A stretch of DNA of 64,000 nucleotides from Scenedesmus sp. PABB004 (lineage: Eukaryota). Location: NCBI GenBank assembly GCA_014905635.1, contig JABVCE010000028.1, positions 1-64,000 on the forward strand, given 5' to 3'. Shown in pieces: positions 1 through 58,105 of this stretch (position 1 is its first letter; each line of letters begins with the position of its first letter). A model generated the notes under the pieces. The model ran no database searches. It was given only the letters and a program-made list of their open reading frames with translations, and had not been told where the DNA came from. The translations under genes and the position numbers were made by a program.

Positions 1-148
1 AACCCTAAACCCTAAACCCTAAACCCTAAACCCTAAACCCTAAACCCTAAACCCTAAACCCTAAACCCTAAACCCTAAACCCTAAACCCTAAACCCTAAA
101 CCCTAAACCCTAAACCCTAAACCCTAAACCCTAAACCCTAAACCCTAA
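1..148. repeat. Telomeric repeat array (CCCTAAA)n / (TTTAGGG)n
   Basis: About 21 perfect 7-mers from base 1, C-rich strand on +, i.e. a left chromosome end. Confidence 0.98.
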
Positions 149-249: not shown

Positions 250-555
250 CAGCCAGCGAGTGTGGTCTGAACTGGGCAGCTGGGGTCAGCTGCCGCGTGT
301 GTGCGCATTGAGTGTCTGTGGTTTACAGGGCAGGGCAGCAGCAGCGGGCGATGAGCGCTCAAAGACAAGACAAAGATAGTTACACCACAGGCTCATCCGC
401 CACAGCGCTCATCCGCCAGGTCGCTCATCTCGTGCGTCACCTGCCGCCCCGCCGCGCCAGCAGCGTCGTCGTGCGGCGCGGGGCTCGCCGTCTCCCCCTC
501 GGCCAAGGCATGCCGCGCCTCCCCCGGCCGCGTCGTCGTGGGTCAAGCGGAAACA

Positions 556-560
556 TTACA
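556..560 (-). terminator. Putative TGTAA polyadenylation signal of the DNMT gene
   Basis: TTACA on + in an A/T-richer patch downstream of the stop at 1216; UGUAA is the chlorophyte poly(A) signal. Similar signals lie near 12644 and 38365. Confidence 0.5.
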
Positions 561-1215
561 AGCTTGCAAGCCCCGACCGACGCCGACCGATCAATAGCAC
601 CACGGGCGCCGGCGAGCTCGTGCGAAGCGGTCGTGCGACGCCGTCGCGCAAGCGGCTTGCTCGACACGCCACGTGCGACATCCTCCAGCTGAGAGCTCAC
701 AAAAATTCTTGACGCGCCGCCTGGCCCGCCGCGAGCGCAGTGTTTGGGAGCAGCGCAAGCGCCACAGCAACGCACAACGGTGTGCGGACAACCGTTGCGG
801 TCAAGAGCACAACCTGCCTGCCTCCTTCCTGCCTCCTGCTTCTGCCTGCTGTCACCGCGCAGCGCCCCCTGCGCAACGCCTCCTGCCCAGCGCCTGCCAG
901 TCTCGCGCCCACACCTGCCGCGCACACCGCACACCGCCTGCCGCACACGAAACGACGTTGCGCATGCCCCCCCCCCAAACAAGCTGAGCGGCCCGCCCCG
1001 CCATGCGGATCAATGCCCCCGCTGCCAGGCCACGCAGCGAGCCACGCGCGCCCGGGCCGCGCCTCACAACGCCGCGGCCCGGCGCCAAAGCGCAAGCCAC
1101 GAGCTCCCGCTGCGACCTCCGCCCGTGCGGCGTGGGCAGCCAGCCCGCCGCGGCGCCCGACACGCCGCCGCCCGGCGCCGCCAGCCCAAGCCGCACGCGC
1201 GCCGACGCGCCGTGC

Positions 1216-3492
1216 TCAGGCGCGGCGCTTCTTGGCGCCCTTGCCCGACTCGCGCAGCACCGTGATCTGGTCCTTGATCCGGAAGCCCGCGACCGCCGCC
1301 GCGGTGCGCCGGCCGCGGCCCTCGAGCTCGGGCCACCCCTCGTTGTCGGACGCGGGCCCGCTGCGCGGCGAGTCGGGCGGGCTCACAGAGTCGGGCGGGG
1401 GCAGCCGGGCCTTGCGCTTCTTGGGCGCGGAGCTGGACCCCGTGCCCGGGGCCTTGCGGCCGGCGGCGCCGGGCGCGGGCGTGGCGGGCGTGCCGCCCGC
1501 CGGCGCGGGCGTGGCGTCGCGCGAGCCGCCGGGCGAGGCGCGGCCGTCCATGATGCGCAGCATCTTCTCCCGGTTGCGCTGGATGTTGTCGAGCCGCTCC
1601 TGCTCCATCGCGCTCAGCGCCTCGCGCCCGCCCGCCACGTCCGGCAGGCCGCCCTGCGCCGGCAGGCACGGCGGCAGCGGCGCGGCAGTCGGGGCGCCGC
1701 CGCGGCGCGCGCCCGCATACGCGGCGCAGCCGCCGCCGCCGCAGCTGCCTGCCACAGCCCGCGGTCTCACCGCGCCCGCGACGCGCAGGCGCGCGGCCTC
1801 GATGTCGCGCATGGCCGAGTCGCGCAGCGCGCGCAGCTCGGCCGCCTTGGCCACCCACTGCGCGGGCTGGCTGCGGAGCTTGATGCGCTGCGACGCGAGC
1901 GCGGGCGCCGGGCGCGCGAGGCGGGCGCGGGGCGGTCAGGCGCGCCGGCGGCGACGCGGCGGCGGGCGCTGCCAGCGCAGGGCCCGGCCGGTCCGCGTGC
2001 CGCACGGTGGTGCACAGCCCGGGCGGGCCCCACCTGCTGGGGCGCCCAGAGCGGGATGATCTCCACGTCGCCGTCGGTGTAGCGCACCGTGTGCCGCACG
2101 CGCAGGTTGTCGTACGAGATGAGCTGCGCGCGGCGGCGCGCCGGGTCGGGGGCAGGCGCGCCCGCGCTGTGTGCTGCGGCGTCGAGCTAAGAGCTGCCTC
2201 TGCCGCGCGCCCCTGGACCCCCCCCCCCACACACACAACGGCGCCGCGGCTCACCACGCCCTTGTACCAGGTCTGGTCCAGGGGCCACCAGACGTCCACC
2301 TCCGCGCCCACGGCCTTGTCGCCCAGCACCGCGAGCTGCGCGCCGGCGTGCCCCGCAGCCGCGGCCGCGGTCGCGCGCACCAGCAGGCAGCGCCGGCGGG
2401 TGGTGGCAGAGGTCTGCGTGCACGCCTCGCACACCTTGCACCTGTGGGCGCGCGCGCGGCGTGAGTCGACGCGCGGCGTGCGGCGACGAGGGCGGCAATG
2501 GGCGCCCCCGCGCCGCGCAGCCCGCCGCACCTGGGCATGCGCGTGTTGACCGCCGCCGCCTGCTTGGCGGCGCGCCCGGCCGCAGCCGCGCGGTGGCCCT
2601 TGTCCTGCCCGTCCCTGTCGCTGCCGTCGCTGCTGTCGGGCTCGCTGCTCAGCTCAGCGGCAGCCAGGTGCACCGCGCTGGGGCCCGCAATGGCCGCCAG
2701 CTGCTCCGTGCGCGCGCGCAGCTTGGCGGCGCGCGCCACGATGGCCGCGCAGTGCTTGGCCTCGCGGTAGGCGCGGCGCCACTCGTGGGAGCGCTGCAGC
2801 TTGCCCGCCTCCATCAGCGAGCTCGCCTCGCCTGCAAACGGGCGCGGCGGCGGCGCGCTCAGCTCGCAGCTGCGCGGCGCGCGCCGCGCCGCGCGCCGCG
2901 GCTGCTGCGCCGCGGCACGCGTCGCGCTCCTGCCGCGCCGTGCGGCGCGCGCACCCTTGCAGCGGGCCTTGTGCTCCTTGAAGGGCAGCAGCTCGTCCTC
3001 AAAGCGCCACTCAAACGTGTCGTTGTGGAACCACACGAGCAGCACCTTGCGCGGCCCGCCCTCGGGCGGCGGCGCGCCCGGCGCGTCCTCGGACGGCAGG
3101 AAGCGCTTGCGGTCCGCCACGCCCAGCGCGAGCTTGTGCTCGGGCAGGAGCTTGAAGCCGCGCGGCGGGTCAAAGGGGTCGATCGCCTCGCACGGCCAGA
3201 ACACGCGCAGCAGGGGCGCGGACGCACTGGTCGACGCGCCCTCGCGCGCCGCCTGGCCCCACAGCGGCGCCCACACCAGGCGGCCGATGCTGCTGGCGGA
3301 GGAGGTCATGCTGTCGGGGCGCTGCGAGTCTGCGCGCGCCACGGGCAGCGGGCAGGTGAGCGGCAGCGGCAGCACTCTAAGCACTCGTAGAGCGGCGCGT
3401 GCGTGGCCCCCAGCGCAGTGAGCCCCGCACACGCTCACCCTGCATCAGGTCCTTCAGCACCGCGCGGCCGCCGCCACCGCCACCGCCGCCGG

Positions 3493-3532
<40 letters not shown>

Positions 3533-6532
3533 GGCGCCGCCTGCGCCCAGGCCCAGCCCCGCCACGCCGCACATGAGCATCTTGCGCTCGGTGCGGTCGA
3601 CGTTCCAGCCCTGCTCCTTGAGGCGCTGCAGGTACGTCACCAGCGCCACGTCCGGCGGCGCGGGGCCCACGCGGCGGATGAACTCGCCCAGCGGGATGAA
3701 GCGCGCCTGCAACCGCGCGGGGCGGGCTCAGCGGCCGCAGCGCTGCGCCGCGCGGCGCTGGGCGCGCGCACGGACGCGGCGCGCACGCCCCGCCCCTCCC
3801 TCGCGCACCTTGACCGGGCTGTCGCTGGCCTCGCGCAGGCCCCAGCGCCCGTGGCCGGCCACGTACCACGCGGCGCGCGGCCACGTGGCCGTCAGCCGCG
3901 CGGGCTTGTAGCGCTCCGACACCGTCTGCGCCGGCAGCTCCACGGTCAGCGCGGCGCGGCGGCGCAGCCCGCCGCTGCGCGGCAGCGGCCCGTCGGCGCT
4001 GCGGCTGCCAGGCCGCGGCGGCGCACCTTGTCGTTGCCCTGCGGCGCGTCCTTGTCCTCGCAGACCTCGCTCGCCTGCGCCTTGCCCGCCTGCTCCTCCG
4101 CCTCCTCTTCCTGCTCCTGCTCCTCGCCGCCGTCGTCCTCCTTGTCGCTGCCCCTCTCGTCGTCCTTGCCCAAGCTGCCCGCCGCCGCCGCGCCCTGGCC
4201 TGACTCGTCCGCGCCGCCTGCGCTCTTGCCCTGCTGCTGGCACTCTCCCGCCTCGTCCTCGCTGTCAGCCTGCCCCGCCTCCCACGTCGACGTGCGGGTC
4301 TTGCTGTAGCGCTTGGCCTGGCCGCCCGCCGCGCCGCCGCCCCTGCTCGCGTCCATGCGCACCTCGCGCAGGCGGTCCCACACCCTGCAGCCCGGCGCGC
4401 GGCGCGCACGGCAGTGAGCGCGCGCGCCGGCCCACGCACGCAGCGCTGTGCGCGCTGTCACCCGGCGGCCAGGGCGCGCGCGGCCGCGCAGCGGGCGCGG
4501 CCTCACTTGGTCGGCAGCGTCGCGGGCTGGTTGACGAGGCCGAGGGGCACGTCGTTGTCTGTGACCATGTACTTGAACGCGTACGGGTCCGCCAGGCGCT
4601 CGCCCAGCCAGCGCGCCACCTGCGCGCGCACCGTGCACGGGCGCGCGCGCTGGGCGGCGGGCAGATGCCGCCCAGCGGCGCGGAGCGCTGCCGCCTTGCC
4701 CCCTCCGCCCCCTCCTGGCGGGGGAGCCGCGGAGGAGGCCCGCGCCCGCGTCATCCCCGCCGCGCCTGCACGGTGACGGCGTTGCCGAGCAGCGCGAAGC
4801 GCGCGCGCGCGGCCGTGTCGGCGTCGCCGTCGCTGCGCGCGGTGGTCCTGTGCGCCCGGATGCCCGGCGCCTTCACGGGCCAGCACGCAGACGTGTGGCC
4901 CACGGGCAGGCCCTGCGGCGGCGCAGGCGCACTGCGTCACGGCGCGGAGCGCTGCGGCCGGGCGGCCGGCGGCGGTCAGCCGCGCGCGCGCGCGTCCTGC
5001 GCGTGGGGGCACCTGGAGCCGCTCCGCGTCCTCAATGCGCAGCGCGCCGTAGCGGCCGTTGGAGAGGAGCAGGCAGATGCGGGCGTTGCTCGTGGTGAAG
5101 GTGGGCACGACGTCCACGCCGGCAGAGCTCCTGCGGGCGGCAGCGGCGCCACGCAGGCGTCACGCGCTGCGCCGGCGAGGGCAGCAGGCGGCCGGCCTCA
5201 GCTCGCCGCTCGCGGGCGCCGCCGCACCGCGCGTTGCCGAGGTCGAGGGCGTACGAGCAGCGGTGCATGGCCGTCTCGCTCTTCGCGCCCGTGACTGGGT
5301 CGTCGTCGGGGTCGAAGCACTCCCAGCAGTCCCCGCCCACCGCCGAGAGGCACCCGCCGACGCAGCGCTGGAGGCCCTGCGGCAGCGCCGCCGCACGGGC
5401 GTGGCGGCGGCGGCGTGGGGCGTGGCCCGTGCGCAGCGCGTGCCCGCGGCAGCCGCGCCGTGCGCCAGCCCTGGACGAGGTCTGACCGCCAGCATCGGCG
5501 CAGCGCCCACCTGCCCCAGCAGCACGTCGCGCGCGTCGCCGTGCATGGAGGCCAGGATGAAGGTGCGGCGCCGCCGGTTGGGCACACCAAAGCCTGCGGT
5601 GCAGACCACGCGGTGCGCCCAGCTCTTGTAGCCGAGGCGCTCCAGCTGGTCCACCACCCACGACACGAGCGGCGGCCCGCCGTGGCAGCGGTCCAGCAGC
5701 GCCTCGACCTGCGCGCGCACGCCGCACCGCGCGGCACAGCGCACACTCAGCGCCGCGTGCGTGGCAGCGCCGCCTCGGGCGCAGGCCGGCCGGTGAGGGC
5801 GCGGCGCGGCGCAGCTCGCTCACGTTCTCCAGCAGCACCCAGGGCACCGGCCGCGCGTCGCCCTTGGCCTGCTCCAGCAGCCGGAACACGTGGCGCACCA
5901 GGCCCGTGGACTGCGTCGCAGGCAGGGGCGCAGGGGCTCAGCTCAGCTGCGGGCGCGCGCGCGCGGTGGACCAGCACGACGCCCGACCGCACGGCGCGGC
6001 GGCAGCAGCTGCGGCGCCGCCCAGCCGGCAGCGCTCACCGGGCCGTCCAGGCCCTGGCGCAGCCCCGCCCTGCTGACGTCGATGCAGGGGAAGCCGGCCG
6101 CCACCAGCTCCGTCTCCTGCGCGGCGGGGCGGCGCGGGCGAGCAGCGCGGTCGGCGGGCCGCCGGCTGCGCGCGCCGCGGCCGCGGGGGCGCTCTGCGCT
6201 CGCCGCACCTTCGGCAGGCGCTCGAGGCCGCAGATGTCGGGCACCAGCAGCGTGCCGGAGAAGGCCTTGCGCAGCACCTGCGCCGCGGCGCGGGTCGGCG
6301 CGCGGGCGCCAGCGCGGCGCCGCCCCCGCCGTTGGCCGCCGCCTGCGCCGCACCTGCTGCGCGCCCGGGTCGCACTCGCACTGCAGGATGATCTCGTGGC
6401 CGGCCTGCGCCACGGGGCGGCTCAGCGGCCGGGAGCGGGCGCGCCATCAGCAGATCGGCCTGCCGGAGCGCCCACCTGGTGCAGCCCCAGGTCCAGGCCG
6501 CCTATCCCGGTGAATAGGCTCACGACCTTCAT
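1216..6532 (-). CDS. DNA (cytosine-5) methyltransferase with C-terminal PWWP-like, CXXC and Tudor-like domains (~18 exons)
   Basis: Spliced exons give motif [65 protein letters not shown]; then [33 protein letters not shown] and [25 protein letters not shown]. Confidence 0.9.
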
Positions 6533-6778
6533 CGCGGAAGCGGGCCGGCGGGCCGTGCACAGGCGCAGCCGCGGGACGCCAGCCGCGGGCCGGCGCCAAG
6601 GGCCGCGTGTGAGCGACACGGCGGCAGACACCGAGCCCAGTATCGGTCTGGCACGCGGGGAGCGCGCCGTGGCGCCTCTCCGGGCTTTACCAGCTGGTGG
6701 ACCGCGCCCCGGCCAGCGCGGTCAGCGCTCGCGCTGCCGCGGCCGCCGCCGCCGCCGCGGCCGCGGCCGCCGCCTCCC

Positions 6779-8962
6779 TCACTCGTCGTCGCGCGCGCTG
6801 CGGTTCCAGTAGGCCGCCAGCAGGCTGCCGACCGTCGCGTGCGTGCACGCGGACAGCACGCAGGGCGCCACGATGAGGGGGTCGTGGGGGAAGTGGATCT
6901 TGGCCAGCACTGGTCAGCAGGAGGCGGGCAGCAGGAGGGCGGACCGGGGGCGGCGGTCAGCTCTGCGCGCGGCGCTGCGCGCCAGCGGCAACGCCCAGAC
7001 AGCGACCAGCGCGCGATGCGCGCGCTGCGGCGGCCGAGGCGCGCACCTGCCGCCAGCGCGCTGCTCTGCATGCCGACCTGCAGGCAGGCGGCACGCAGGC
7101 AGGCGGCGCATGAGCGCGGTAGCCTAGCGGGCGGGGCGGGCCCTGTCGCGCGCGTCTGCCTGGCCGCTCCACCAGCCTGCCAAGAGGCTGCCGAGCGTGG
7201 CATGCGTGCACGCTGACAGCACGCACGGCACGACGGCCATGGGCTCCGCGGCAAAGTGAATGCGCGCGAGCACACCAGCGAGCGCGCTGTTCTGCATGCC
7301 CACCTGTGCGCGCAGGTGCGGCGCGCGCGCGCGCCATCAGAGCCGCCCCTGCGCGCGCCCACCCCGCGCGCGCGCGCGCCGCCGCCGCCCGGGGCGCCGC
7401 GACCGTGGCACCCCGTCTCGCGCCGCGCACCTCGATGGAGTTGGTGCGGCAGATCTTGTCTGGCAGGCGCAGCGCCTTGCTGATGAAGTAGCCCAGCGCA
7501 AAGCCGCAGCCGTGCAGCGTCAGCACCGCGCTGATGATGTTGAGACCGCTCGACCCCACCACGCCCACGTTGGTGCTGCGCGGCGGGCGCGCGGGGGCGC
7601 GCGGTTAAGGCGCGGGCGTCAGGGCGCCGCGCGGCGCGGCGCGGCGGCGCGGCGGCGCTGTGCAGGCTGGCCCGGCCGGTGCGTGTGGGCCGCGGTGCGC
7701 GCCTGATCATGGAGCCCACGATCATGACGACCAGCAGCGTGGCAAGGAAGGGCGTGAAGACGCGCAGCCGCGCGACGCCGCGTGGGAATGCCTGGTTGAG
7801 CGCTGTGCCGAGGATGACGGGCGCGAGCACGAGCTGCACGACGCTCAGGAACATGGCCTTGGGGTCGACCGGCACGAGCGTGCCCACGAGCAGGCTGGTC
7901 AGCAGCGGCGTGGTGAACACCGCCATGAGCGTGCTCGCGGTGGTCATCATGATGCTCAGCGGCATGTCGCCCTTGGCGATGAACGCAACGATGTTGCTCG
8001 CTGCGCGCACGCGCGCGCCGGGCGGCGCGCGGGTCGGGCGGCGCGCGCCGGGCGGCGCGCCTGGCGGGCGGCGCGGGGCGAGCGGGCGCGGCGCCGTGGG
8101 CCCGCGGGCGCACCCGTGCCGCCGGGCATGCAGGAGACGAGCGCGACGCCGATGGACAGGCTTGGGGAGAGGCCCCAGTGGCGGCTGATGGCCCAGCCGA
8201 TGGCCGGCAGCACGCTGTATTGCAGCACCATGCCCAGCAGCAGCAGCTGCGGGCTGCGCGTGAAGACGCCGGTGATCTCCTCAAACGTCAACGTCAGGCC
8301 CTGACCCCGGCGGCGCGCGTGCACACCAGGGGGGGGGGGGTGCGAGTGTGTGTGGGGGAGGGGGAGGGGGGGGGGCTAGGGAGGGCGAGCGCGCGCTTCC
8401 GCGTGCGGCGTGGCGCTGCGCTGTCGCCGCGTCACCGCGCCGCACCATGGCGAGCATGCAGAGCACGAGGCTCCAGGTCACGTAGGCGTCGGTGAACCAG
8501 TTGAACACGGGCGGGTGGTGGAAGCCCACCAGCGCGGCGAGCACCACCCACAGCGGAAAGAGCGTCGTCGCCGTCTTGCACAGCGCGCCCAGCCGCTGCT
8601 CAAACGCGCTCAGCACCAGGCCCCCGCCGCCGCCGCCGCTGCTGCTGCTGCCACCGCCCGCCGCCGCGCCGCTTGCGCTGGCGGCGCACGCGAGCGGCCG
8701 CCGGCCTGGCCCAGGGCGCGGCGCAACTGCGCCCGCCGCTGCCGCCGGCCAGTGGCGCAGCTGCGACCGCAGCGCGTGCGCGCTCCTGCGGGGACCCGGC
8801 GCGGTGTGCGGCTCGCCGCCAGCCGCGCGCGCGACAGGCGACGCCAGCCGCGGCGGCGGCAGCGCACCTGGCAGCGGCGGCGCTCGGCCGCGCGGCGCGG
8901 CGCGGCGCGGCGCCGCAGGCGCCCGGCGCAGCGGGGGCGCAGCGTGCGATCGCCGCCGCCAT
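6779..8962 (-). CDS. Plastid bile acid:sodium symporter family (BASS) transporter
   Basis: TATTLFPLWVVL, QYSVLPAIG, LVSCMPGGTASNIVAFIAKGD, LHGCGFALGY, RTNSIEVGMQ(N/S)SAL; transit-peptide-like N-terminus; two alternative C-termini. Confidence 0.9.
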
Positions 8963-9350
8963 CCCGTGCTGCGGCCGGATGTGTCGCGTGGCCAGCACGG
9001 CGCTGGAGCGCTGGCGCAGAGTGCTCGACCTGGGGCGCGCGCTGCCGGGCCCGTGGCGCGCGGCCGATGATGGCGACGCGTTGTGCGCGAGGCGGGTGTG
9101 CGTCTGGGCCGGGCTGTGGCATCACGCGATCTCCAGGGCTCGCGGGCTGAGCTCGGGTCCGCCCGGAACCCCGCGGCGCTTCAAAGTCGGCACTCAGCTC
9201 GCCCCGTCAGGCTGCGCAGGGCCGTCCGACCAGACCACCGCGCCGCAGGCGGGCAGGCGCCGCGCGCCGGGCGCCTCACAACGATTGTTGCCCTCGCCCG
9301 CCAGCGCTCCACAGAGGCGACGAGCGGCGCTGCGGCCGCGCCCACCGGCC

Positions 9351-10392
9351 ATGATCGGCGCCAAGCGGCGGCGCGAGGCCGGCGGCGGCGACGCGCCGGC
9401 GTCGCGCGCGGCGGGGCGCTTGCAGCTCGACACCACGGTCGACCAGGGCGACCAGGACGCGCGGCCGCAGCAGGTGAGCGGGTCTGGGCGGACCAGGGCC
9501 GCCGATCGGCGCGCGTGGGGAGCCAGGGCCGCGCCGGCCACCAACAACGCCCGCCGCCGAGCGCGCAGGCGGCCGGCGGCGCGCAGCCGCGCGCGGCGTG
9601 GCACGAGCGTCCGCAGAAGATGCTGCGCAAGCTGCTGGGCATGGTCGGCCTCGCGCCGCAGCGCAGCAGCGAAGGCAGCGCACCGAACACCGGCGGCGGC
9701 ACGGCGCCGCTCGACGAGGGCGCCGCCGCGGCGGCCGCAGACGATGCGGCGGCGGCAGACGCAGGCGCGGCCGAGGCAGAGGCAGCGGCCGCGGGCGCGG
9801 GCACAGCGCGTAGGCAGCGCGATGAGCAGCCCGCCGCCCTCAGCAGCAGCCCGCCGCCCTCAGCAGCGCCGCACGGCGGCGCTGGCGCTGGCGGCGCCGT
9901 TGGCCCGAGCCGCACAGGCACGGACGCCGGTGCCGCCGCAGCGCCCAGGCGCGGCGCAGCTCGTGCACCTGCGCGGAGCAAGTCCGAGCGCTTGCAGCAG
10001 CTGCTGCTGGGCGCTGCGGGCAGCACGGGGGGCGCAGCTGCACCCTGCGGGCTGGCCAGCGGCAGCGACTCGCGGCAGCGAGGCGCCGGCCCCGCGGCAA
10101 TCTCGGCGCCCAGCTTCGGCAGGAGGCGGCTGCTGCCCCCCAGCCCCGTGCCGCCCGCCAAGCAGGCGGTGGCCTGCTGCGGCAGCGCCGCCGCACCCCG
10201 ACCGCAGCCCGAGCAGGCGCAGCCGGAGCAGGCGCAGCCAGAGCTGGCGCAGTCGGAGCTGGCGCAGCCGGAGCTGGCGCAGCCGGAGCTGGCGCAGCCG
10301 GAGCCGGAGCTCATGCAGCTCGAACGGCTGGAGCAGCTGGCGCAGCCCGAGCAGGCGCAGCTGGACCAGCCGGCGCGCGAGGCGCAGCTGGG

Positions 10393-12877: not shown

Positions 12878-14096
12878 TCACGCGAGCGCCTCCAGGATGG
12901 TCTCCGCGCTCGACACGGTGAAGGCGCCGCCCTCCTCCAAGTTGAGCACCTTGACCACCTGACACCCCCGCCCGGGCGGAGCAGCGCGGCTGGGCGGGCG
13001 CGCCGCGCGCCGCACACGCGCGGGGCTCCCCCCCCTCGGGCCAGAACCCCCCCCCCCCCCCCCTGGCGCGCCGCGAGCGGGCGCTCGCGGCCCACCTGGT
13101 CGTCGGCCAGCAGCGCGTAGCGCCTGCTGCGCACGCCGAGGCCCTTGTCGGTGAGGTCCAGCTCCACGCCCAGCGCCTTGGTGAACTGGCCGTTGCCGTC
13201 GGCCAGCATCAGCACCTGGGCGCGGCGACGCGGCGGCGTTGGTGAACTGGCCGCGTGCCCGCGTGCGCTGCGACGCCTCGCCCGCGCCTCTCACCTTGTC
13301 GCCCGCCGCCACGCCCTTGCCCCACGCCTCCATCACAAACGCGTCGTTCACGGAGACACAGGCGATGGTGTCGACGCCGCGGGACTGGCGCGCGGAGCGG
13401 AGCGGGCGGCGCGGGTGCGCGTCGTGCCGTGCGCGCCCGCCGCCGCCGCGTCGCCGCCGCGCACGCGGCGCGCCGCTGCTGGCCCCCGCTGCGCGCACCT
13501 TGATCTCCTCCGCCTTCTCGATGAAGCCGGGCAGGTGCTTCATGCTGCAGGTGGGCGTGAACGCGCCCGGCACGGCGAACAGCACCACCTTCTTGCCCTT
13601 GCACAGCTGCTCCGTGCCCATCTCCTTCATGTTGCCCTCGCTGTCAAAGTACCTGAACTTGGCCTCCGGCAGCTTGTCGCCCACGGCCAGCGCGTACGTG
13701 CGCACGCTGGCCGCCCGGGCAGGGGCCCGGGGTGCCATGGTGGCCGCCCCAGCCAGCCGGCTGCTCCTGCGACGCAGCAAAGCGCGGTGTGGGACGTGGA
13801 AGCGCTGATCAGCACGCCGCACGCCACGCCTGGGCACGCCGGGCACCGTGCAGGGCGGGCGGGGCGCTGCTGCCAACGAGCGCGGCCCCACGCGCACGCG
13901 GCACGAGCCGCCCTGCAGCTGCCGCCGTCCGGCCCCAGATCGCGCCGATCACCGCCCGCGCGCCCGCGCAGGCGGCTGCAGGGCTTGTGCACGCGGCGTC
14001 GGCGCTCGCTCCGCTCGCGCCCGCCCCGCCGCGCAGTCGCGCGCCCGGGCCGCCCGCACACCTGACGCAGGTGCGGCTCACGCTCTGGGCGAGCAT
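12878..14096 (-). CDS. PRXII: Type II peroxiredoxin, plastid (PrxIIE-like)
   Basis: [57 protein letters not shown]; transit peptide [16 protein letters not shown]. Confidence 0.93.
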
Positions 14097-27069: not shown

Positions 27070-29169
<2,100 letters not shown>

Positions 29170-45303: not shown

Positions 45304-46525
45304 CCGCCCGTGCACGCAATCGCCACGTGCGCTGCTGCTGCTGCTGCTGCGTCAAGGGCGCCGCCGCCGCGCCCGCCGGCTGCAAAGATGGCAGCCCGCG
45401 TGTGGCGGCGCGGGGGTCAACAACTCTCGCACCAGCGCCAGGTGGGCTGACGCCTGGGCGCGCTGCCGCGAGCGGCGCCGTTCTGCCCGACCGCCCAGGC
45501 GCAGCCGCAGCGCCACGCCGTGTGCAGGCCGCGCGCTCGCCGGCACGACGAGGGCCGCCGCCCGCCGCGGCGCCAGGGGCTGGGAACATTCACCGGGCCC
45601 CCGCGCTGCGCGCGGCGGGCGCGCGCGCCTCGCGCCGTCTGCACCTGCCGGCGCCCATGAGTGGTCCGGCGCATCAAATGCAGCGGCGGCGCCGCCCTGC
45701 ACCTGCTCTGCATGCCTGGCTGCTGCGCGCCGGCCGGCGCTGTGCAGGGGCGGCGGGGCGGCGGCGCCCCGCGCCTGCCGGCCGGCGCGCCAAACGGCAC
45801 CACACGCAACCCTAGCCTACCCTGCCCTGCCCGACACGCAGCGCAGCAGGCAGCACATGTGCACAGGGCCGCCGCCTCTCCTCCCTGCCCGCCCGCCTGC
45901 CCTGCCTCGTGCCGCGCCCTGCCGCGCGCAGCGCCCGATGAAATCGGCCCTCCCCGCCCGCCGCCCGGCCCGCGTGTGCCCTGCGTCGAGTGCCGCGCTG
46001 CTGCTGCTGCCGCCTGGGCGCATGAATGGACCGCCCGGTGTGTCACGCCGCGGCAAGTGAGTGATGATGACCCTGCCTCGCAAGCTAGGCCGCCCCCCGC
46101 CCCGCCTGGCCTGCTACCTCTGCTCATCCTGCACCAACGCCGCTGCCTGGGGAGGCGCTGCCCCGCGCGCCGCCCGGGCCACGCCGCGGGCGAGCGCTGC
46201 AGGCGGCAGCGCGCCGCGCCGCGCCGCGCCGGCCGGCTGCGCCTGCAGCCGGCGGCGGCGGGCGCTGCCCCGGCGCGCGCGCGCCTCCCGAGCGGCTGCG
46301 CGGGAGGCGCGCGGGCCCGACGCCCACGGGCGCCACCCGTGGGCCCGCGCAGGCGTGCATGCTGCTGCGCCGCCTGTCATGCGTGGGGCCGGCGCGTTTT
46401 TGTTGTTTTTCGAACAAGCTTCTTCGAATGCAGTGCTGACTGCTTGTCCGCGGCCGGCCGCCGCTCCAGCTGCTGCTGCTGCCGCTCGCTCCCCGGCCGC
46501 CCCTGCGTGCTGCTGGCGCCGGTGC

Positions 46526-53169: not shown

Positions 53170-54256
53170 ATGGCGGGCGTGAAGGAGCTGCACGCGACGC
53201 CTGGCGTGTGCTCCAGCCGGCCGGAGGAGACGCGGGGCTTCATCTTCCAGCAGACCATGCTGCGCGTGAAGGACCCGGTGAAGAGCCTCGACTTTTACAC
53301 CCGCGTGCTGGGCATGACGCTGCTGGCAAAGCTCGACTTCAAGGAGATGAGCTTCAGGTGTGACCGCACGTGCCGGGGCCGCCGGGGTCGGGGCGCACGA
53401 AGCGAGCGACGCGGCGGGGCGGCCTCGCGCGCCGCGCCGCACACGCAGCGCGGCCCGCCGCCGCCGCGCCCGCCCGCGCTCCACGCTGCGCCGCTGCGCG
53501 CAGCCTCTTCTTCCTGGGCTACGAGGCGCCGGAGGACATTCCTGAAGACCCGGCGGAGCGGGCGCGCTGGATGTTCTCCCGCCCGGCCGTGCTCGAACTC
53601 ACGCACAATTGGCGCGTACCGCGCGCCGCGCGCCGCGTGCCGCGCGCCGTGCGCCGCGGGCGGGCGGGCGTGCCCGCGCGAGAGCTCACGCCGCCGCCGT
53701 CGCCGCCCCTCGTGTTGGCGCAGGGGGTCGGAGGCGGACGACAGCGTGAGCTACCACAGCGGCAACGCGGACCCCCGCGGCTTTGGGCACATCGGGCTGG
53801 CGGTGCCCGACGTCTATGCGGCGTGCGAGCGCTTTGAGAAGTGAGCGAGCCCGGGCGATCCAGGCCCGGGGGGGGGGGGGGGCGCAGTGCGGCGCGGGGG
53901 CCGCCGCGGCGCGGCGCGCCGGCGCGCGACCGCGCGACTGCCCCTGCCGCCGGCGCCGCCAGGCTGGGCGTGCCGTTCGTCAAGACGCCCGACGGCGGCA
54001 GCATGAAGGGCCTCGCCTTCATCAAGGACCCAGGTGGGTCGCGGGCCGGGCGGGGCGTGGGTGCCCACGCCCCGGGGGGCTTGCGTGCTGCGCGCTGCGC
54101 GCAGGCGTGCGCCCTGACAGGTCCGCTCGTCCCTCCCCCGCTCCGCCCCGCCCCGCGCGCGCTTGGGGGCCCGTGGCCCGTGGCGCGGCAGACGGCTACT
54201 GGATTGAGATCCTCAACCCCTACGCCTCGAGCCGCTTCGGCGACGCACCGGCGTGA
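53170..54256 (+). CDS. GLO1: Glyoxalase I (lactoylglutathione lyase), Zn-type
   Basis: [65 protein letters not shown]; an upstream targeting exon is possible. Confidence 0.95.
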
Positions 54257-54503: not shown

Positions 54504-57500
54504 TCACTTGGCCGCGCGCGCGCGCTTCGGCCGCCCGCCGCCCGCGGCCTGCTGCGCCGGCGCCTTGGCCTTGCCCTTGCCGGCGGCAGGCGCCTCTGCG
54601 AGCGCCGCCGCGCGCGCCTCGAGCGCGGCCACGCGCTCCGCCTTGCCCGCGATCGCGCGGTTGATGCGCCCGTACAGCTTCCGCGTGCGCCGCGTCATCA
54701 TGATGTCAGCCAGCGCCCCGCCCTCGTCCTCCTCGCCTCCGCCCGCCGCGGCCGCGGCGGCGGCGCGCTTGGCGCCGCGCGTCGCCGGCGCGGCGCCGGC
54801 CGCGGGCGGCGCGTCGTCGCCGTCCGAGGCGTCGCCGTCCGAGCCGCTGCTGCTGTCGGCGTCGGCGTCGGCGGCGTCGGCGGCGCCGCCGGCGCCGGCC
54901 TGCTGCGCGGCGCGCAGCTCGCGCGCCAGCTCGCGCGCGTACGCCGCCTCGGCCGCCGCCGCGTCCTCCGCGCCGTCGCCGCCCGGCGGCGCGCCTGCCG
55001 CCGCGCCGCCGGCCGTGCCGCCGCCCTGCAGGAAGGCCGCCTCGCTCGCGTGCCCCGCGGCGGCGCGGCGCGCCGCGCGCGCGGCCTCCTGCAGCGCCAC
55101 GATGGTGCGCGCGTACTCGGGCGTGTAGCCCTCGGCCTCGTTGTCCACAAACGGCGACAGGTGCGGCGGCGGCGGCGCGCCCGGGGCGTAGGCCTCGGGC
55201 GGCAGCAGCAGGCGGTGGTTGAGCGAGTCAAAGAGCCACTGCGGCTGCACGTAGCACCGCGACAGGAACCTGCGGCGCGCGCGGGGCGGCGAGCGGGGAG
55301 TGGGCGGGGTGAGCGGGGCGAGTGGGGGCACGCACCGGCGGCGCGCGGCGCGCCTGTGGCCCTGCGTCGGCCGGTCCACGATCTGGTGCGTGATCGCCTC
55401 GTCGCCCTCCGCGTACGGCGAGCCGGGGCCCTCCCAGCCCGCGGCGCCGCCAAACGCCCTGCGCGGGAGGGGCAGTGGCGGGAGCGGCGTGGGCGCCGGC
55501 GCCGGCGCGGCGCTGCCAGCGCGCGGCCGGCCCGGGTCCGCTGCCGCTGCTGGCGCCGCTGGCGCAACTGGCGCAACTGGCACCGGTGCCCCCCCCCCCC
55601 GCTCACTTGATCATGAACAGCAGCGGCTCCCGCGGCACCTCGCGCGCGAGCCAAAACACGCAGCCCCGCAGCAGCACGCCGCACAGCCCCGCGTCGTCGT
55701 CCGCGTCCACCTCGCCCAGCCCGCCGCCCGCGACCGCCGCGCCCGCGGCGGCGGCGCCGGCAGCCGCTGCTGCTGCGTCGCCGCCCGCGGGCTCGCGCGC
55801 CGGCGCCGCCGCGGGCGCCTCGTCGCCGCTGCCGCCCGCCAGCTGCTCGCTGGCGCCGCCCTCGTCCTCCTCCTCCTCGTCCTCCTCCGCCTCGCCGCCC
55901 TCCTCGCTGCTGCTCTCGCCGCCCTCCGCCTCCTCCTCGCTGCCGGCGCCGGCCTCCGAGTCGGGCTCCTCCTCCGAGTCCGACTCGCCGCCGCCCGAGT
56001 CAATGTCGGGCATCAGCTCCGAGTCCGACCCGCCCTCGCCGCCCGCGGCGGCGCCGCCGGCCTCGGCCGCCTGCAGCTCCCGGATCTTGCGCCCCAGGCT
56101 GCCCAGCCGCGCCACGACCTCGGGCGCCGGCGCCGCCGCGGCGCCACCCTCCAGCTGCTGCTGCTGCTCCTGCCCCGGCTGCCCCGCCTGCTGCTTCCCC
56201 TGCTGCGCCTGCTGCTGCGCCGCCGCGTCGTCGGCGAGGCCGGACATGTCAGCCATGACGCCCGCCAACCCCGCCGCCGCCTCGTCCAGGCGCCGGTCCA
56301 GCAGCGGCGGGTAGCTGCGCCGGCACGGCGGTGCAGCGCGGCGCGGGTGCGTGAGCGCGTGAGTGCGCGAGCGCGCGGCGCGGCGCGGCGCCCCCAACAC
56401 CACCGCCGCCGCGCCCTCCCGCCCTCCTCTCGCTGCGCCGGGCTGCGCGGGGCTGCTGGCGCGCGGGCCTCACGTGAGGCCGAGTGCGTGGTAGAGCTTG
56501 AACAGCACAAACTGGAGCAGCGTGGCGTAAAACTCGAGGAAGGTGAGCATGACGGTGAAGTCGACGTCCCCCGGCAGCACCTGCGACAGCTGGTGAGGGA
56601 CCAGCCACGTCACCGCGGTGCCCGCGATCTCAGCCTGCGGCGGCGCGGCGGCGGCGCGGGGCGGCGGGGCGGCGCGTGGGCGCAGTGCGGCGCGCGCCCG
56701 GCGGCGCCGGTGCGGTGCCGCGCCGCCGCCGTGGCCTCAGGGTGTCAGTTCTCGTCCGCGGGCCTGGTGTCTAGGCAGGCCCTACGCAAAGATTAAGCCT
56801 TGTTGAAACAGGGATCGTCACCGGCCACATGCTGCTAGCTTAGGGGCTTAGGGGCCGCCCGCAGCCCCGCAGCCCCGCAGCCCCGCCCCGCCTAAACCCT
56901 GCCCAGTGAACTCCCGCACCTGGTAGTAGAAGCCCTTGACGCTGACAAAGACCTTGCGCAGCGCGTGCGTGCGCGCGACGTACGCGCTCCACTCGAGCAC
57001 GAGGCGCCGGCAGCGAGACACGACCTGGGGCGCGATGCCGCGCGTCGCCTCGGCCGGCAGCGTCGCAAAGAGGTGCACGAGCGTGAGCGGGTCGTCGAGG
57101 TCGCGCAGCGCGTCCACAAACGACGGGTACCTTTGAAGGGGGGGTGGGGTGGGGGGCGCGGGCGTGGCGCGGGCGCGGGTCTGGGCGAGCGAGGGGGAGG
57201 GAGGGAGTGGCAGCGAGCGGCGCGCGCCGGCGCAGCTGGCGCCCTCGCAACGCCCCCGCTCCCCCTCTCAGGGCCCCCCTGCCCCACACTCACCGCTCCT
57301 TGACCAGGTGGTCCAGCTTGTAGCCCGGCTTGGCCGCCAGCAGGCGCCGCGCGAGCGCGATGTTGGACTTGGCCCGCGCCTTGCGCACGCGGCGCTCGTG
57401 CACCTTGACCGCCCTGAGGCGCGCGGCGACGCGCCGCGTCAGCGCCAGCTGCGCGCCTGCGCGTCCGGGCGCCGCCGCCGCCATCCACCGCTGTCGCCGT

Positions 57501-58105
57501 CGCTCGCCGCCGCTGCCGCTGTCCCCCGCTGCTGCTGCCGCTGCCGCGTGCGCGCCGGCACGCGCACTGCGGCCGCGCCTGAAGGTGGCGATGAGCGGCT
57601 CGTGCGCGAGCCAGTTGATGTCCTTGACGTGGTAGTACGTCTTGTTGGCGCCGCGGACCTTCTTCTTGGGCTCGCGCGGGTGCACGCCCTTGAGGATGCA
57701 TAGCCGCCTGCGACAGGCGCGGCGGGCGGCGCAGCGGCGGTAAGCCGCCGCCGCCCGCGGCAGCCGCCGCGCGCGGCCGCGCCCCGCCGCGGCCGGCTGC
57801 TGGGAACGCGGCTGCCGTGGCCTGGCGCGCCCGCGCGCCGGGCGGCGCGCCGGGCGCGGGCGGGCCGGCGGCAGCCGCCGGCGGCCGCGCGCCGCCGCTG
57901 CCGCGCCGCGCCGGCGCGCACCTGAACTCCGACAGGCGCAGCTGCAGCTTCTTGATGGCCTGGTTGCGCGTGAGGTACTGCGCCGCGTTGCCCGCCTTGC
58001 CCTGCGGCGCGGAGGACGTGCGGCGCGGCGCGATGGGGCACGGCCGCGCGCCAGCAGCGCCGCGCGTCCGCGCGCGCGTCGCACCCGCTTCATACGCTTC
58101 CCCAT
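54504..58105 (-). CDS. PES1: Pescadillo homolog (PES1/Nop7)
   Basis: [99 protein letters not shown]. Confidence 0.95.
56731..56828 (-). ncRNA. Candidate intronic box C/D snoRNA
   Basis: GTGGCC-G-GTGACGA (C box) ... CTGA (D box)-GGCCAC terminal stem; GGCTTAATCTTTG is antisense to the conserved 18S segment CAAAGATTAAGCC. Confidence 0.8.

Follow-up and report, generated by a model that had tools for sequence, protein, structure and literature searches.

A candidate intronic box C/D snoRNA in a green algal pescadillo gene, a probable counterpart of the Ostreococcus 18S-G42 guide Ot-CDsno92

A sequence of about 98 nt within the pescadillo gene of Scenedesmus sp. PABB004 is probably an intron-encoded box C/D snoRNA whose D' guide directs 2'-O-methylation of 18S rRNA at G42, and which is thus a counterpart of Ot-CDsno92 from Ostreococcus tauri. 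It was found in a stretch of 64,000 nucleotides, referred to here as the window. The candidate is a further 18S-G42 guide of a kind already known from Ostreococcus, and not the new guide that an earlier, sequence-only reading had considered possible, since an 18S.G42 guide with the same core has been described in O. tauri and is reported to be conserved across Mamiellophyceae (PMC7671301).

Host gene and anatomy of the candidate

The placement of the snoRNA in a pescadillo intron is borne out by the neighboring exons, which match Pescadillo_N (PF06732); they cover profile positions 118-185 and 186-238, which join without gap or overlap at the host intron. Within the intron, 91 nt separate the 5' splice site from the snoRNA and another 96 nt follow it up to the 3' splice site. 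The snoRNA is sense to pescadillo, a ribosome-biogenesis gene. In O. tauri, 72 of 131 snoRNAs are intronic, and one third of the intronic set lies within ribosome-biogenesis genes. The host intron had been described as enlarged, which holds only modestly: it measures 285 nt, compared with 148-214 nt for the five other pescadillo introns mapped in the exon model drawn up here.

All features named in the sequence-only reading, namely the stem, boxes, hairpin, 13-mer, and low-GC island, are present on the minus strand where it had located them (Table 1). The C and D boxes stand near the ends of the molecule and are closed by a 6-bp terminal stem, within the 4-8 bp typical of the class; a potential seventh pair (U.G), formed by flanking bases, was counted by the pattern scan described below. 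Read from the sequence, the gap between this stem and the GA dinucleotide is 3 nt (G G U), which is K-turn spacing. Directly upstream of the D' position lies an antisense element of 13 nt to 18S, where at least 10 nt are expected of the class. The arms of the internal hairpin (56782-56776 and 56766-56760) form 7 bp around a 9-nt loop, and the gap between the hairpin and the first GA of the C'-like box, again by reading of the sequence, is 3 nt (GCG). The degenerate D' box is the sole unusual feature of this snoRNA. Because CGUA agrees with CUGA at two of four positions and lacks the G of the second sheared pair, the methylation competence of the D' half is uncertain.

Table 1. Features of the candidate snoRNA and its host intron, in window coordinates
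Feature	Position	Strand	Basis or remark
Upstream pescadillo exon	56920..57130	-	PF06732, E 1e-27; 87% identity to protein P0002
Host intron, 285 nt, GT..AG, phase 0	56635..56919	-	Pfam junction; tblastn with algal pescadillo proteins
5' half of terminal stem, GUGGCC (snoRNA nt 1-6)	56823..56828	-	pairs with 56731-56736
C box GUGACGA (nt 8-14)	56815..56821	-	one deviation from RUGAUGA (U5 to C)
Spacer UCCCUGUUUCAACAA (nt 15-29), C box to antisense element	56800..56814	-	contains the 8-mer AUCCCUGU
13-nt antisense element GGCUUAAUCUUUG (nt 30-42)	56787..56799	-	complement of 18S nt 50-38
D'-like box CGUA (nt 43-46)	56783..56786	-	agrees with CUGA at 2 of 4 positions
Internal hairpin GGGCCUG / CCUAGACAC / CAGGCCC (nt 47-69)	56760..56782	-	MFE and centroid folds
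C'-like box CGGACGA (nt 71-77)	56752..56758	-	both GA dinucleotides retained
D-side spacer GAACUGACACC (nt 78-88), possible second guide	56741..56751	-	last 8 nt complement 28S GGUGUCAG
D box CUGA (nt 89-92)	56737..56740	-	read from sequence
3' half of terminal stem, GGCCAC (nt 93-98)	56731..56736	-	partner of GUGGCC
Downstream pescadillo exon	56474..56634	-	PF06732, E 7.7e-21; tblastn

The candidate shares the general C/D architecture of the Rfam C/D families. Within the window, no Rfam family reached its gathering score, and the Rfam search that had been proposed for the candidate returned no known family on it, even with E values up to 10. Weak Rfam matches at 56837-56878 reflect a hairpin of high GC content that lies upstream of the candidate.

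Composition and statistical tests

The 98 nt of the candidate have a GC content of 60%, compared with 79% for the window, and the intron flanks reach 72% and 94%. Within the snoRNA, the guide is 38% and the spacer 40% GC, and their position amid such GC-rich flanks suggests that the guide is kept AU-rich in spite of the composition of the genome. Five other low-GC islands occur in the window, and in none of them does a C box precede a D box at a snoRNA-like distance; by eye, four of the five read as coding sequence.

Both strands of the window were scanned for RTGAYGA followed by CTGA 45-140 nt downstream, with a terminal stem of at least 5 bp. This pattern gave one match, the candidate itself (stem of 7). 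In dinucleotide-shuffled windows, at least one match was obtained in 22 of 200 shuffles at a stem of at least 5 bp, and in 10 of 200 at a stem of at least 6 bp. The exact 13-mer GGCTTAATCTTTG (56799-56787) occurs a single time in the window; given the base composition of the intron flanks, its expectation is about 3e-6 per 128 kb. When up to two mismatches were allowed, a match to the 13-mer appeared in 4 of 100 shuffles. The predicted guide:18S duplex has an energy of -19.5 kcal/mol, a value matched by none of 1000 shuffled guides, and the fold z-score of the candidate is -1.15.

The 18S target and its register

Complementarity was judged against the conserved (yeast) 18S sequence, and G42 follows yeast numbering. 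The 13-mer is identical to the core of the yeast 18S probe CATGGCTTAATCTTTGAGAC (rDNA 753-734) and complementary to the universal primer 18S-42F, which supports the proposal that it is antisense to 18S nt 38-50. Its last nucleotide directly adjoins the D'-like box, and the +5 rule therefore selects 18S G42; as C38 pairs with the nucleotide adjoining the box, the +5 position is G42 and not C38. The register suggested by the sequence-only reading is further supported by the two relatives described below, both of which carry CUGA exactly at the position of CGUA in the candidate.

Other guides address the same stretch of the 18S 5' domain but act on other nucleotides, among them Arabidopsis AtsnoR66 (18S Cm38) and U27/SNORD27/snR74 (18S Am28); in O. 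tauri, Ot-CDsno70 is predicted for both A28 and C38 (PMC7671301). Neither register fits the candidate. A snoR66-like C38 guide would need its box 4 nt further 3', and CGUA, read against the yeast probe, pairs with 18S at one of four positions, while a U27-like guide is discounted because the antisense element stops short of A28. An accessory pairing between nt 15-25 and 18S UGAAACUGCGA was also considered and set aside: aligned by hand it comprises 9 of 11 positions, is not significant, and is weaker in both relatives.

The portions available of the Arabidopsis, tomato, and tobacco maps, together with their human and yeast columns, give A28, C38, and then U123 for this part of 18S. Gm42 is absent from them, in agreement with the earlier remark that G42 is not a standard methylation site. 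Searches of the literature found no experimentally mapped 18S Gm42; text matches to "gm42" referred to other sites, and the only whole-word match to G42 was an LSU residue.

Relatives in Ostreococcus and in a metagenome

The closest described system is Ot-CDsno92, a 75-nt, uncapped, intronic C/D snoRNA of O. tauri that is present at 532 to 9369 TPM over six libraries (PMC7671301 Table S1). Two targets are predicted for it, 18S.G42 and 5.8S.G35 (PMC7671301 supplementary Tables S1-S6 and sequence file), and its sequence contains GCTTAATCTTTG followed by CTGA (PMC7671301). The antisense core GCUUAAUCUUUG, a 12-mer, is common to Ot-CDsno92 and the candidate and lies 0 nt from the D' position in both; this placement immediately upstream of D' gives the two RNAs the same predicted target, G42. 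Both are intronic and sense to their hosts, and in both a single G separates the short terminal stem from the C box. Each also has UUCA a few nucleotides upstream of the guide, by eye the only sequence shared outside it. Ot-CDsno92 has a canonical CUGA as its D' box where the candidate has CGUA, shows no visible counterpart of the 7-bp hairpin, and carries a different D-side guide; its host encodes an RNase H-like exonuclease instead of pescadillo. BLASTN homologues of Ot-CDsno92 fill six of six Mamiellophyceae columns and none of the Trebouxiophyceae and Chlorophyceae columns (PMC7671301), whereas the alga that hosts the candidate appears to be chlorophycean. In the text-form portions available of the PMC5122169 supplements, neither GCTTAATCTTT nor GCUUAAUCUUU is present.

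A second relative was obtained by scanning metagenomes for the 13-mer pattern, which occurs in at least 117 stretches. Among the matches listed, a D'-like box follows the 13-mer in five, and the full C/D architecture is found in just one of these, contig L013, a eukaryote-like sequence of 65% GC. Its nt 66-147 contain, in order, UGAUGA, the same 13-mer, CUGA, UGAUGA, a 13-nt spacer, CUGA, and a 4-bp stem. The 5' halves of L013 and the candidate align through the stem, the C box, TGTT..TCA..AAGG, and the guide, with the box directly after the identical 13-mer, whereas their 3' halves do not align. All four boxes of L013 are canonical (UGAUGA, CUGA, UGAUGA, CUGA), in contrast to the CGUA of the candidate. 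Its D'-C' gap is 5 nt, so that it has no internal hairpin, and its D-side guide CCCUAUUUUGCGU differs from GAACUGACACC. By reading of the sequence, a likely 3' splice site follows the L013 snoRNA at a distance of about 110 nt. In Rfam it gave sub-threshold matches to many C/D families, such as snoR20a (25.1 bits against a cut-off of 42); its two putative exons gave no Pfam families and no matches in a protein search. Two other metagenome sequences, L040 and L053, were rejected as chance long stems with no D' box. In viral contigs, the guide combined with a C box gave 12 matches, none snoRNA-like by eye, and the guide combined with CTGA gave 16, none with a C box within 50 nt upstream. The relatives found are two, L013 and Ot-CDsno92, and more homologues may exist beyond the metagenome matches listed. 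Their likeness to the candidate lies mostly in the guide, where the target imposes the sequence, so an independent origin of the candidate is possible.

Proposed function and alternative explanations

In the proposed mechanism, once the pescadillo pre-mRNA has been spliced, the RNA would be freed from intron 4 and its ends trimmed as far as the terminal stem. Members of the class are stable RNAs of 60-150 nt bound by fibrillarin, Nop56, Nop58, and Snu13; here, a K-turn formed by the C and D boxes would recruit the core proteins, among them the methyltransferase fibrillarin. By sequence, the 13 nt directly upstream of the D'-like box pair with 18S nt 38-50, a part of the 5' domain that is conserved universally, and the fifth paired position upstream of D' faces G42, which would then be 2'-O-methylated. 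Such methylation would make the candidate the functional counterpart of Ot-CDsno92. The boxes have drifted in this alga of about 79% GC, where C reads GUGACGA, C' CGGACGA, and D' CGUA. In a model built on this one sequence, the 7-bp hairpin may hold C' and D' together as a variant K-turn with the pairs G73.A46, A74-U45, C75-G44, and G76-C43.

As an alternative, a genuine C/D snoRNP with a broken D' box might bind 18S nt 38-50 and no longer methylate, acting instead as an antisense clamp or chaperone in folding of the 5' domain. In favor of this, D' reads CGUA where both relatives have CUGA, the guide is still preserved within a GC-rich intron, and the predicted minimum-free-energy fold pairs CGU with GCG, which lengthens the internal hairpin and would abolish the K-loop. 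Yet the guide of the candidate and those of the relatives stop at the same point with respect to the box, the C'-like box keeps both GA dinucleotides with a hairpin-to-GA spacing that fits a K-turn, and neither relative has any demonstrated non-methylating role. Degenerate D' boxes are, moreover, common among functional snoRNAs. A clamp of this kind is considered unlikely. Slightly less credence still is given to the stricter proposal that the D' half has lost methylation competence, with CGUA locked in the extended helix, and that the RNA, once a methylation guide, is kept as a pure 18S clamp in early folding of the 5' domain, possibly with LSU contacts in addition. It is improbable that the sequence is the relic of a decaying snoRNA gene that has lost both processing and function. 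Three of the four boxes depart from consensus, and not even a weak match to a Rfam C/D family was obtained, but the 13-mer is still perfectly complementary to 18S, the guide and spacer keep their low GC content against the flanks, and nothing has been lost from the terminal stem of 6 bp, the D box, or the GA dinucleotides critical to C and C'.

The sequence-only reading had also drawn attention to two 8-mers, ATCCCTGT and CTGACACC, and to a possible bipartite chaperone contact with LSU rRNA. The matches themselves stand: as reverse complements, the 8-mers correspond to ACAGGGAU and GGUGUCAG, two stretches of human 28S with 10 nt between them. On this basis, AUCCCUGU beside the C box and CUGACACC beside the D box, each directly adjoining its box, would clamp the ends of GGUGUCAG-N10-ACAGGGAU, a segment that, by hand-derived indexing, spans the conserved sites listed as yeast Gm2793 and Gm2815. 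The contact itself is not supported: neither 8-mer is kept in Ot-CDsno92 or in L013, which has AGGAUGUU and CCCUAUUUUGCGU instead. Pairings of 8 bp are shorter than usual guides, and by the arithmetic used here about 7 exact 8-mer matches would arise by chance between a 98-nt RNA and roughly 5.5 kb of rRNA, while roughly 0.3 pairs of 8-mers would be expected to lie no more than 30 nt apart. Applied to the D-side pairing, the +5 rule leads to a U for which the available parts of the compared tables give no mapped methylation. An LSU clamp is thus a very improbable role for this RNA. Mere random resemblance in intron sequence is the least credible account and can be regarded as extremely improbable: shuffled windows do yield C/D-shaped matches with stems of at least 6 bp and the fold z-score is unremarkable, but the very low expectation for an exact 13-mer placed precisely where a guide belongs, and the recurrence of this arrangement in two further eukaryotic sequences, argue strongly against it.

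Significance

The methylation guide favored here extends the predicted 18S-G42 guide from Mamiellophyceae to an apparently chlorophycean alga, a class with no BLASTN homologue of Ot-CDsno92 in PMC7671301. This suggests that the guide, and presumably the modification too, could have a long history among green algae, even though the land-plant, yeast, and human maps compared here lack it. The candidate also illustrates how a snoRNA can be detected as an AU-rich island in a 79% GC genome, where the target would freeze the guide while the boxes drift; here, D' has changed to CGUA, a C-G pair may compensate for the change, and the closing helix is new. While the candidate reveals no new kind of biology, it provides a concrete site, 18S G42, for RiboMeth-seq in green algae, and its combination of guide and box pattern offers a search recipe for snoRNA families missed by sequence similarity. 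Concerning nomenclature, no paper on "snoZ159" was found in the literature; an entry named "snoZ159.3" stands beside Ot-CDsno92, and a plant compendium lists Z159a as a synonym of U59.

Architecture and rarity of the candidate snoRNA

Read from its sequence, the candidate RNA in the pescadillo intron presents a box C/D frame with K-turn spacing and, at the D' position, a 13-nt element antisense to 18S rRNA. All the elements listed by an earlier sequence-only reading were found where it had placed them, which confirms the observation. The RNA is 60% GC, compared with 78.9% for the window and 72% and 94% for the two intron flanks, while the guide and the spacer preceding it reach only 38-40%. 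Its global fold stability is unremarkable (z -1.15); C/D snoRNAs are generally without strong global structure. No Rfam family match to the candidate was found.

Elements of the candidate snoRNA and its host intron (RNA elements in 5' to 3' order)
Feature	Window position	Strand	Description
Candidate snoRNA	56828..56731	-	98 nt, read 5' to 3'
Elements 1-3		-	GUGGCC, G, GUGACGA
Element 4		-	15-nt spacer UCCCUGUUUCAACAA, after GUGACGA
Element 5		-	antisense guide GGCUUAAUCUUUG, then CGUA
Hairpin after CGUA		-	GGGCCUG / CCUAGACAC / CAGGCCC
After the hairpin		-	GCG, GACGA, 11-nt spacer GAACUGACACC
3' end		-	CUGA, GGCCAC
Host intron	56919..56635	-	285 nt, GT..AG, phase 0

Both window strands were scanned for RTGAYGA with CTGA 45-140 nt downstream and terminal pairing of 5 bp or more; the single match was the candidate, whose stem reaches 7 pairs when a flanking U.G is counted. 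Matches with stems of at least 5 bp arose in 22/200 dinucleotide shuffles, and those with at least 6 bp in 10/200. The 13-mer occurs once in the window; with up to two mismatches allowed, a match appeared in 4 of 100 shuffles, and 128 kb of intron-flank composition should contain the exact 13-mer some 3e-6 times.

The host pescadillo gene

Both flanking exons match Pfam Pescadillo_N (E 1e-27 and 7.7e-21), one at profile positions 118-185 and the other at 186-238; these positions abut across the exons, placing the host intron to the residue. The remainder of the gene was recovered on the same strand by tblastn with two algal pescadillo proteins. The five other introns that can be delimited in our own exon model measure 214, 165, 163, 159 and 148 nt, so that the host intron, at 285 nt against 148-214, exceeds them by about the length of the candidate RNA. 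Intron sequence of 91 nt separates the RNA from the 5' splice site, and 96 nt separate it from the 3' splice site. Among named records, a 70-aa pescadillo exon finds its top matches in Chromochloris zofingiensis (80% identity), Tetradesmus obliquus (79%) and Raphidocelis subcapitata (77%), with 87% identity to a transcriptome record; Chromochloris and Tetradesmus belong to the Sphaeropleales, class Chlorophyceae. Judged from these 70 residues, the source is probably a chlorophycean green alga, one of very high GC content.

The second mapped intron of the gene (57414-57578, - strand, 165 nt) appears to be GC-AG, starting GCGCGG and ending CCTCAG, since by hand reading no other boundary keeps the 11-residue frame of the homologues. 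Just upstream of the snoRNA, the host intron contains three copies of GGGGCTGC followed by two of CCCCTAAG (56837-56878, - strand). These repeats could form a GC-rich hairpin and give weak, sub-threshold Rfam matches (mir-8934, sno_ZL63); they may be mere intron filler.

Pairing with 18S rRNA

A standard yeast 18S northern probe, printed as CATGGCTTAATCTTTGAGAC at rDNA 753-734 (oligo 008 in another listing), has the candidate 13-mer as its core. With a yeast 5' ETS of 700 nt, a length that agrees with the coordinates tabulated alongside for the A0 probe, the probe lies at 18S nt 53-34; the 13-mer thus pairs with 18S nt 50-38, a stretch also targeted by the "universal eukaryotic" primer 18S-42F. 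The predicted duplex comprises 13 contiguous pairs at -19.5 kcal/mol, an energy reached by 0 of 1000 shuffled guides (best -14.9). In C/D guides, counting upstream from D or D', the fifth guide nucleotide faces the residue that is methylated. Because the guide ends directly at CGUA, this rule predicts G42 of the conserved 18S sequence as the target.

An accessory pairing was also considered. At snoRNA nt 15-25 (56804-56814, - strand), UCCCUGUUUCA could form 9 of 11 pairs with a conserved segment of 18S, UGAAACUGCGA, which lies mostly within a common 18S primer. By our own arithmetic this pairing is not significant, and it was rejected. It is weaker in two compared snoRNAs, the metagenome locus L013 (about 5 pairs) and Ot-CDsno92 of Ostreococcus tauri (about 4); UUCA is the sole motif common to the three in this region.

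Relatives and known guides

A metagenome scan for the guide and C box returned at least 117 stretches, most of those listed being plain chance matches in prokaryote-like DNA. A D'-like box followed the 13-mer in 5 of the 117 listed, and a D box and terminal stem were also present only in L013. At nt 66-147 this locus reads UGCC GA UGAUGA ... CACAAAGGCUUAAUCUUUG CUGA ACUCC UGAUGA CCCUAUUUUGCGU CUGA GGCA. It is a C/D RNA of textbook form: its D' is canonical and stands at the exact position of the candidate's CGUA, and it has sub-threshold matches to many Rfam C/D families. Long low-complexity runs, GGAGGGAG and CCCTCCCT, lie on opposite sides of this snoRNA (nt 1-60 and 225-260) and could pair with each other across it.

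Ot-CDsno92 is described as an uncapped C/D snoRNA of 75 nt, counted at 532 to 9369 TPM in six libraries and encoded in an intron of a gene for an RNase H-like exonuclease; its predicted targets are 18S.G42 and 5.8S.G35 (PMC7671301). BLASTN homologues are given there in 6/6 Mamiellophyceae columns and in no Trebouxiophyceae or Chlorophyceae column (PMC7671301). Its printed sequence contains GCTTAATCTTTG followed by CTGA (PMC7671301), which places the antisense core in one register across the candidate, L013 and Ot-CDsno92, whereas D-side guides and host genes differ among the three. Its plant-column entry is "snoZ159.3" (PMC7671301); Z159a is another name for the 25S guide U59.

On sequence grounds, the candidate is the putative chlorophycean representative of this Ostreococcus-described 18S-G42 guide, with a drifted C'/D' motif. 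The sequence-only reading was right about class, host and target (box C/D, pescadillo intron, 18S 38-50), but wrong in suggesting a new guide, since one of this kind had already been described as Ot-CDsno92. Of the neighbouring known guides, U27/snR74 acts on A28 and AtsnoR66 on C38, and O. tauri Ot-CDsno70 has both as predicted targets (PMC7671301). In the consulted passages of three papers, two of them RiboMeth-seq maps of Arabidopsis and the third a review with a table that also covers tomato, tobacco, human and yeast, only A28, C38 and then U123 are given for this region, and G42 is absent. The guide core does not occur in the text-form supplements of a plant snoRNA compendium (PMC5122169), and a published chlorophycean counterpart may exist.

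Proposed mechanism and alternative contacts

The candidate would most likely be released from the spliced pescadillo intron, assemble with the core snoRNP proteins and direct fibrillarin-catalysed 2'-O-methylation of 18S G42. The weak point of this methylation reading is D' (CGUA). The box deviations are patterned, C and C' both having GACGA against the consensus GAUGA, and C' and D' could form a K-turn with the 7-bp hairpin as its closing helix and GCG as its 3-nt bulge. Its pairs would be G73.A46, A74-U45, C75-G44 and G76-C43, keeping the first sheared pair, turning the second into A-U and replacing U.U with Watson-Crick C-G. Natural K-turns with A-U at the second sheared-pair position exist. 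The MFE fold instead pairs CGU with GCG, lengthening the hairpin, which would favour a non-methylating clamp; between K-turn and extended hairpin, one sequence cannot decide.

The sequence-only reading had also taken two 8-mers as a hint of a bipartite, chaperone-type LSU contact. Human 28S as printed contains GGUGUCAG AAAAGUUACC ACAGGGAU, so the 8-mers are true complements of the segment's two ends, and ACAGGGAU covers a conserved site listed as yeast Gm2815 / Arabidopsis Gm2816 (by our own indexing, a coincidence). A functional contact is nevertheless most improbable: neither 8-mer occurs in L013 or Ot-CDsno92, eight pairs are short for a guide, and the D-side +5 position is a U for which the methylation tables consulted give no mapped methylation. 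By our own arithmetic, a 98-nt RNA compared with some 5.5 kb of rRNA yields about 7 exact 8-mer matches by chance; pairs of such matches up to 30 nt apart would number about 0.3.

Other features of the window

The window opens with (CCCTAAA)n telomere repeats (1-245), which keep their regularity as far as about nt 150 and give way to degenerate variants (CCTAAAA, CCTAAA) up to about nt 245; the window thus begins at a chromosome end with a TTTAGGG-type repeat. A T-rich, non-coding-looking island, GCGCGTTTTTGTTGTTTTTCGAACAAGCTTCTTCGAATGCAGTGCTGACTGC, lies amid very GC-rich sequence at 46398-46440 and has no C/D architecture. Three further low-GC islands (13577-13666, 29036-29125 and 53267-53356) resemble conserved coding exons and, on visual inspection, look peroxiredoxin-like, alcohol-dehydrogenase-like and glyoxalase-like, respectively.
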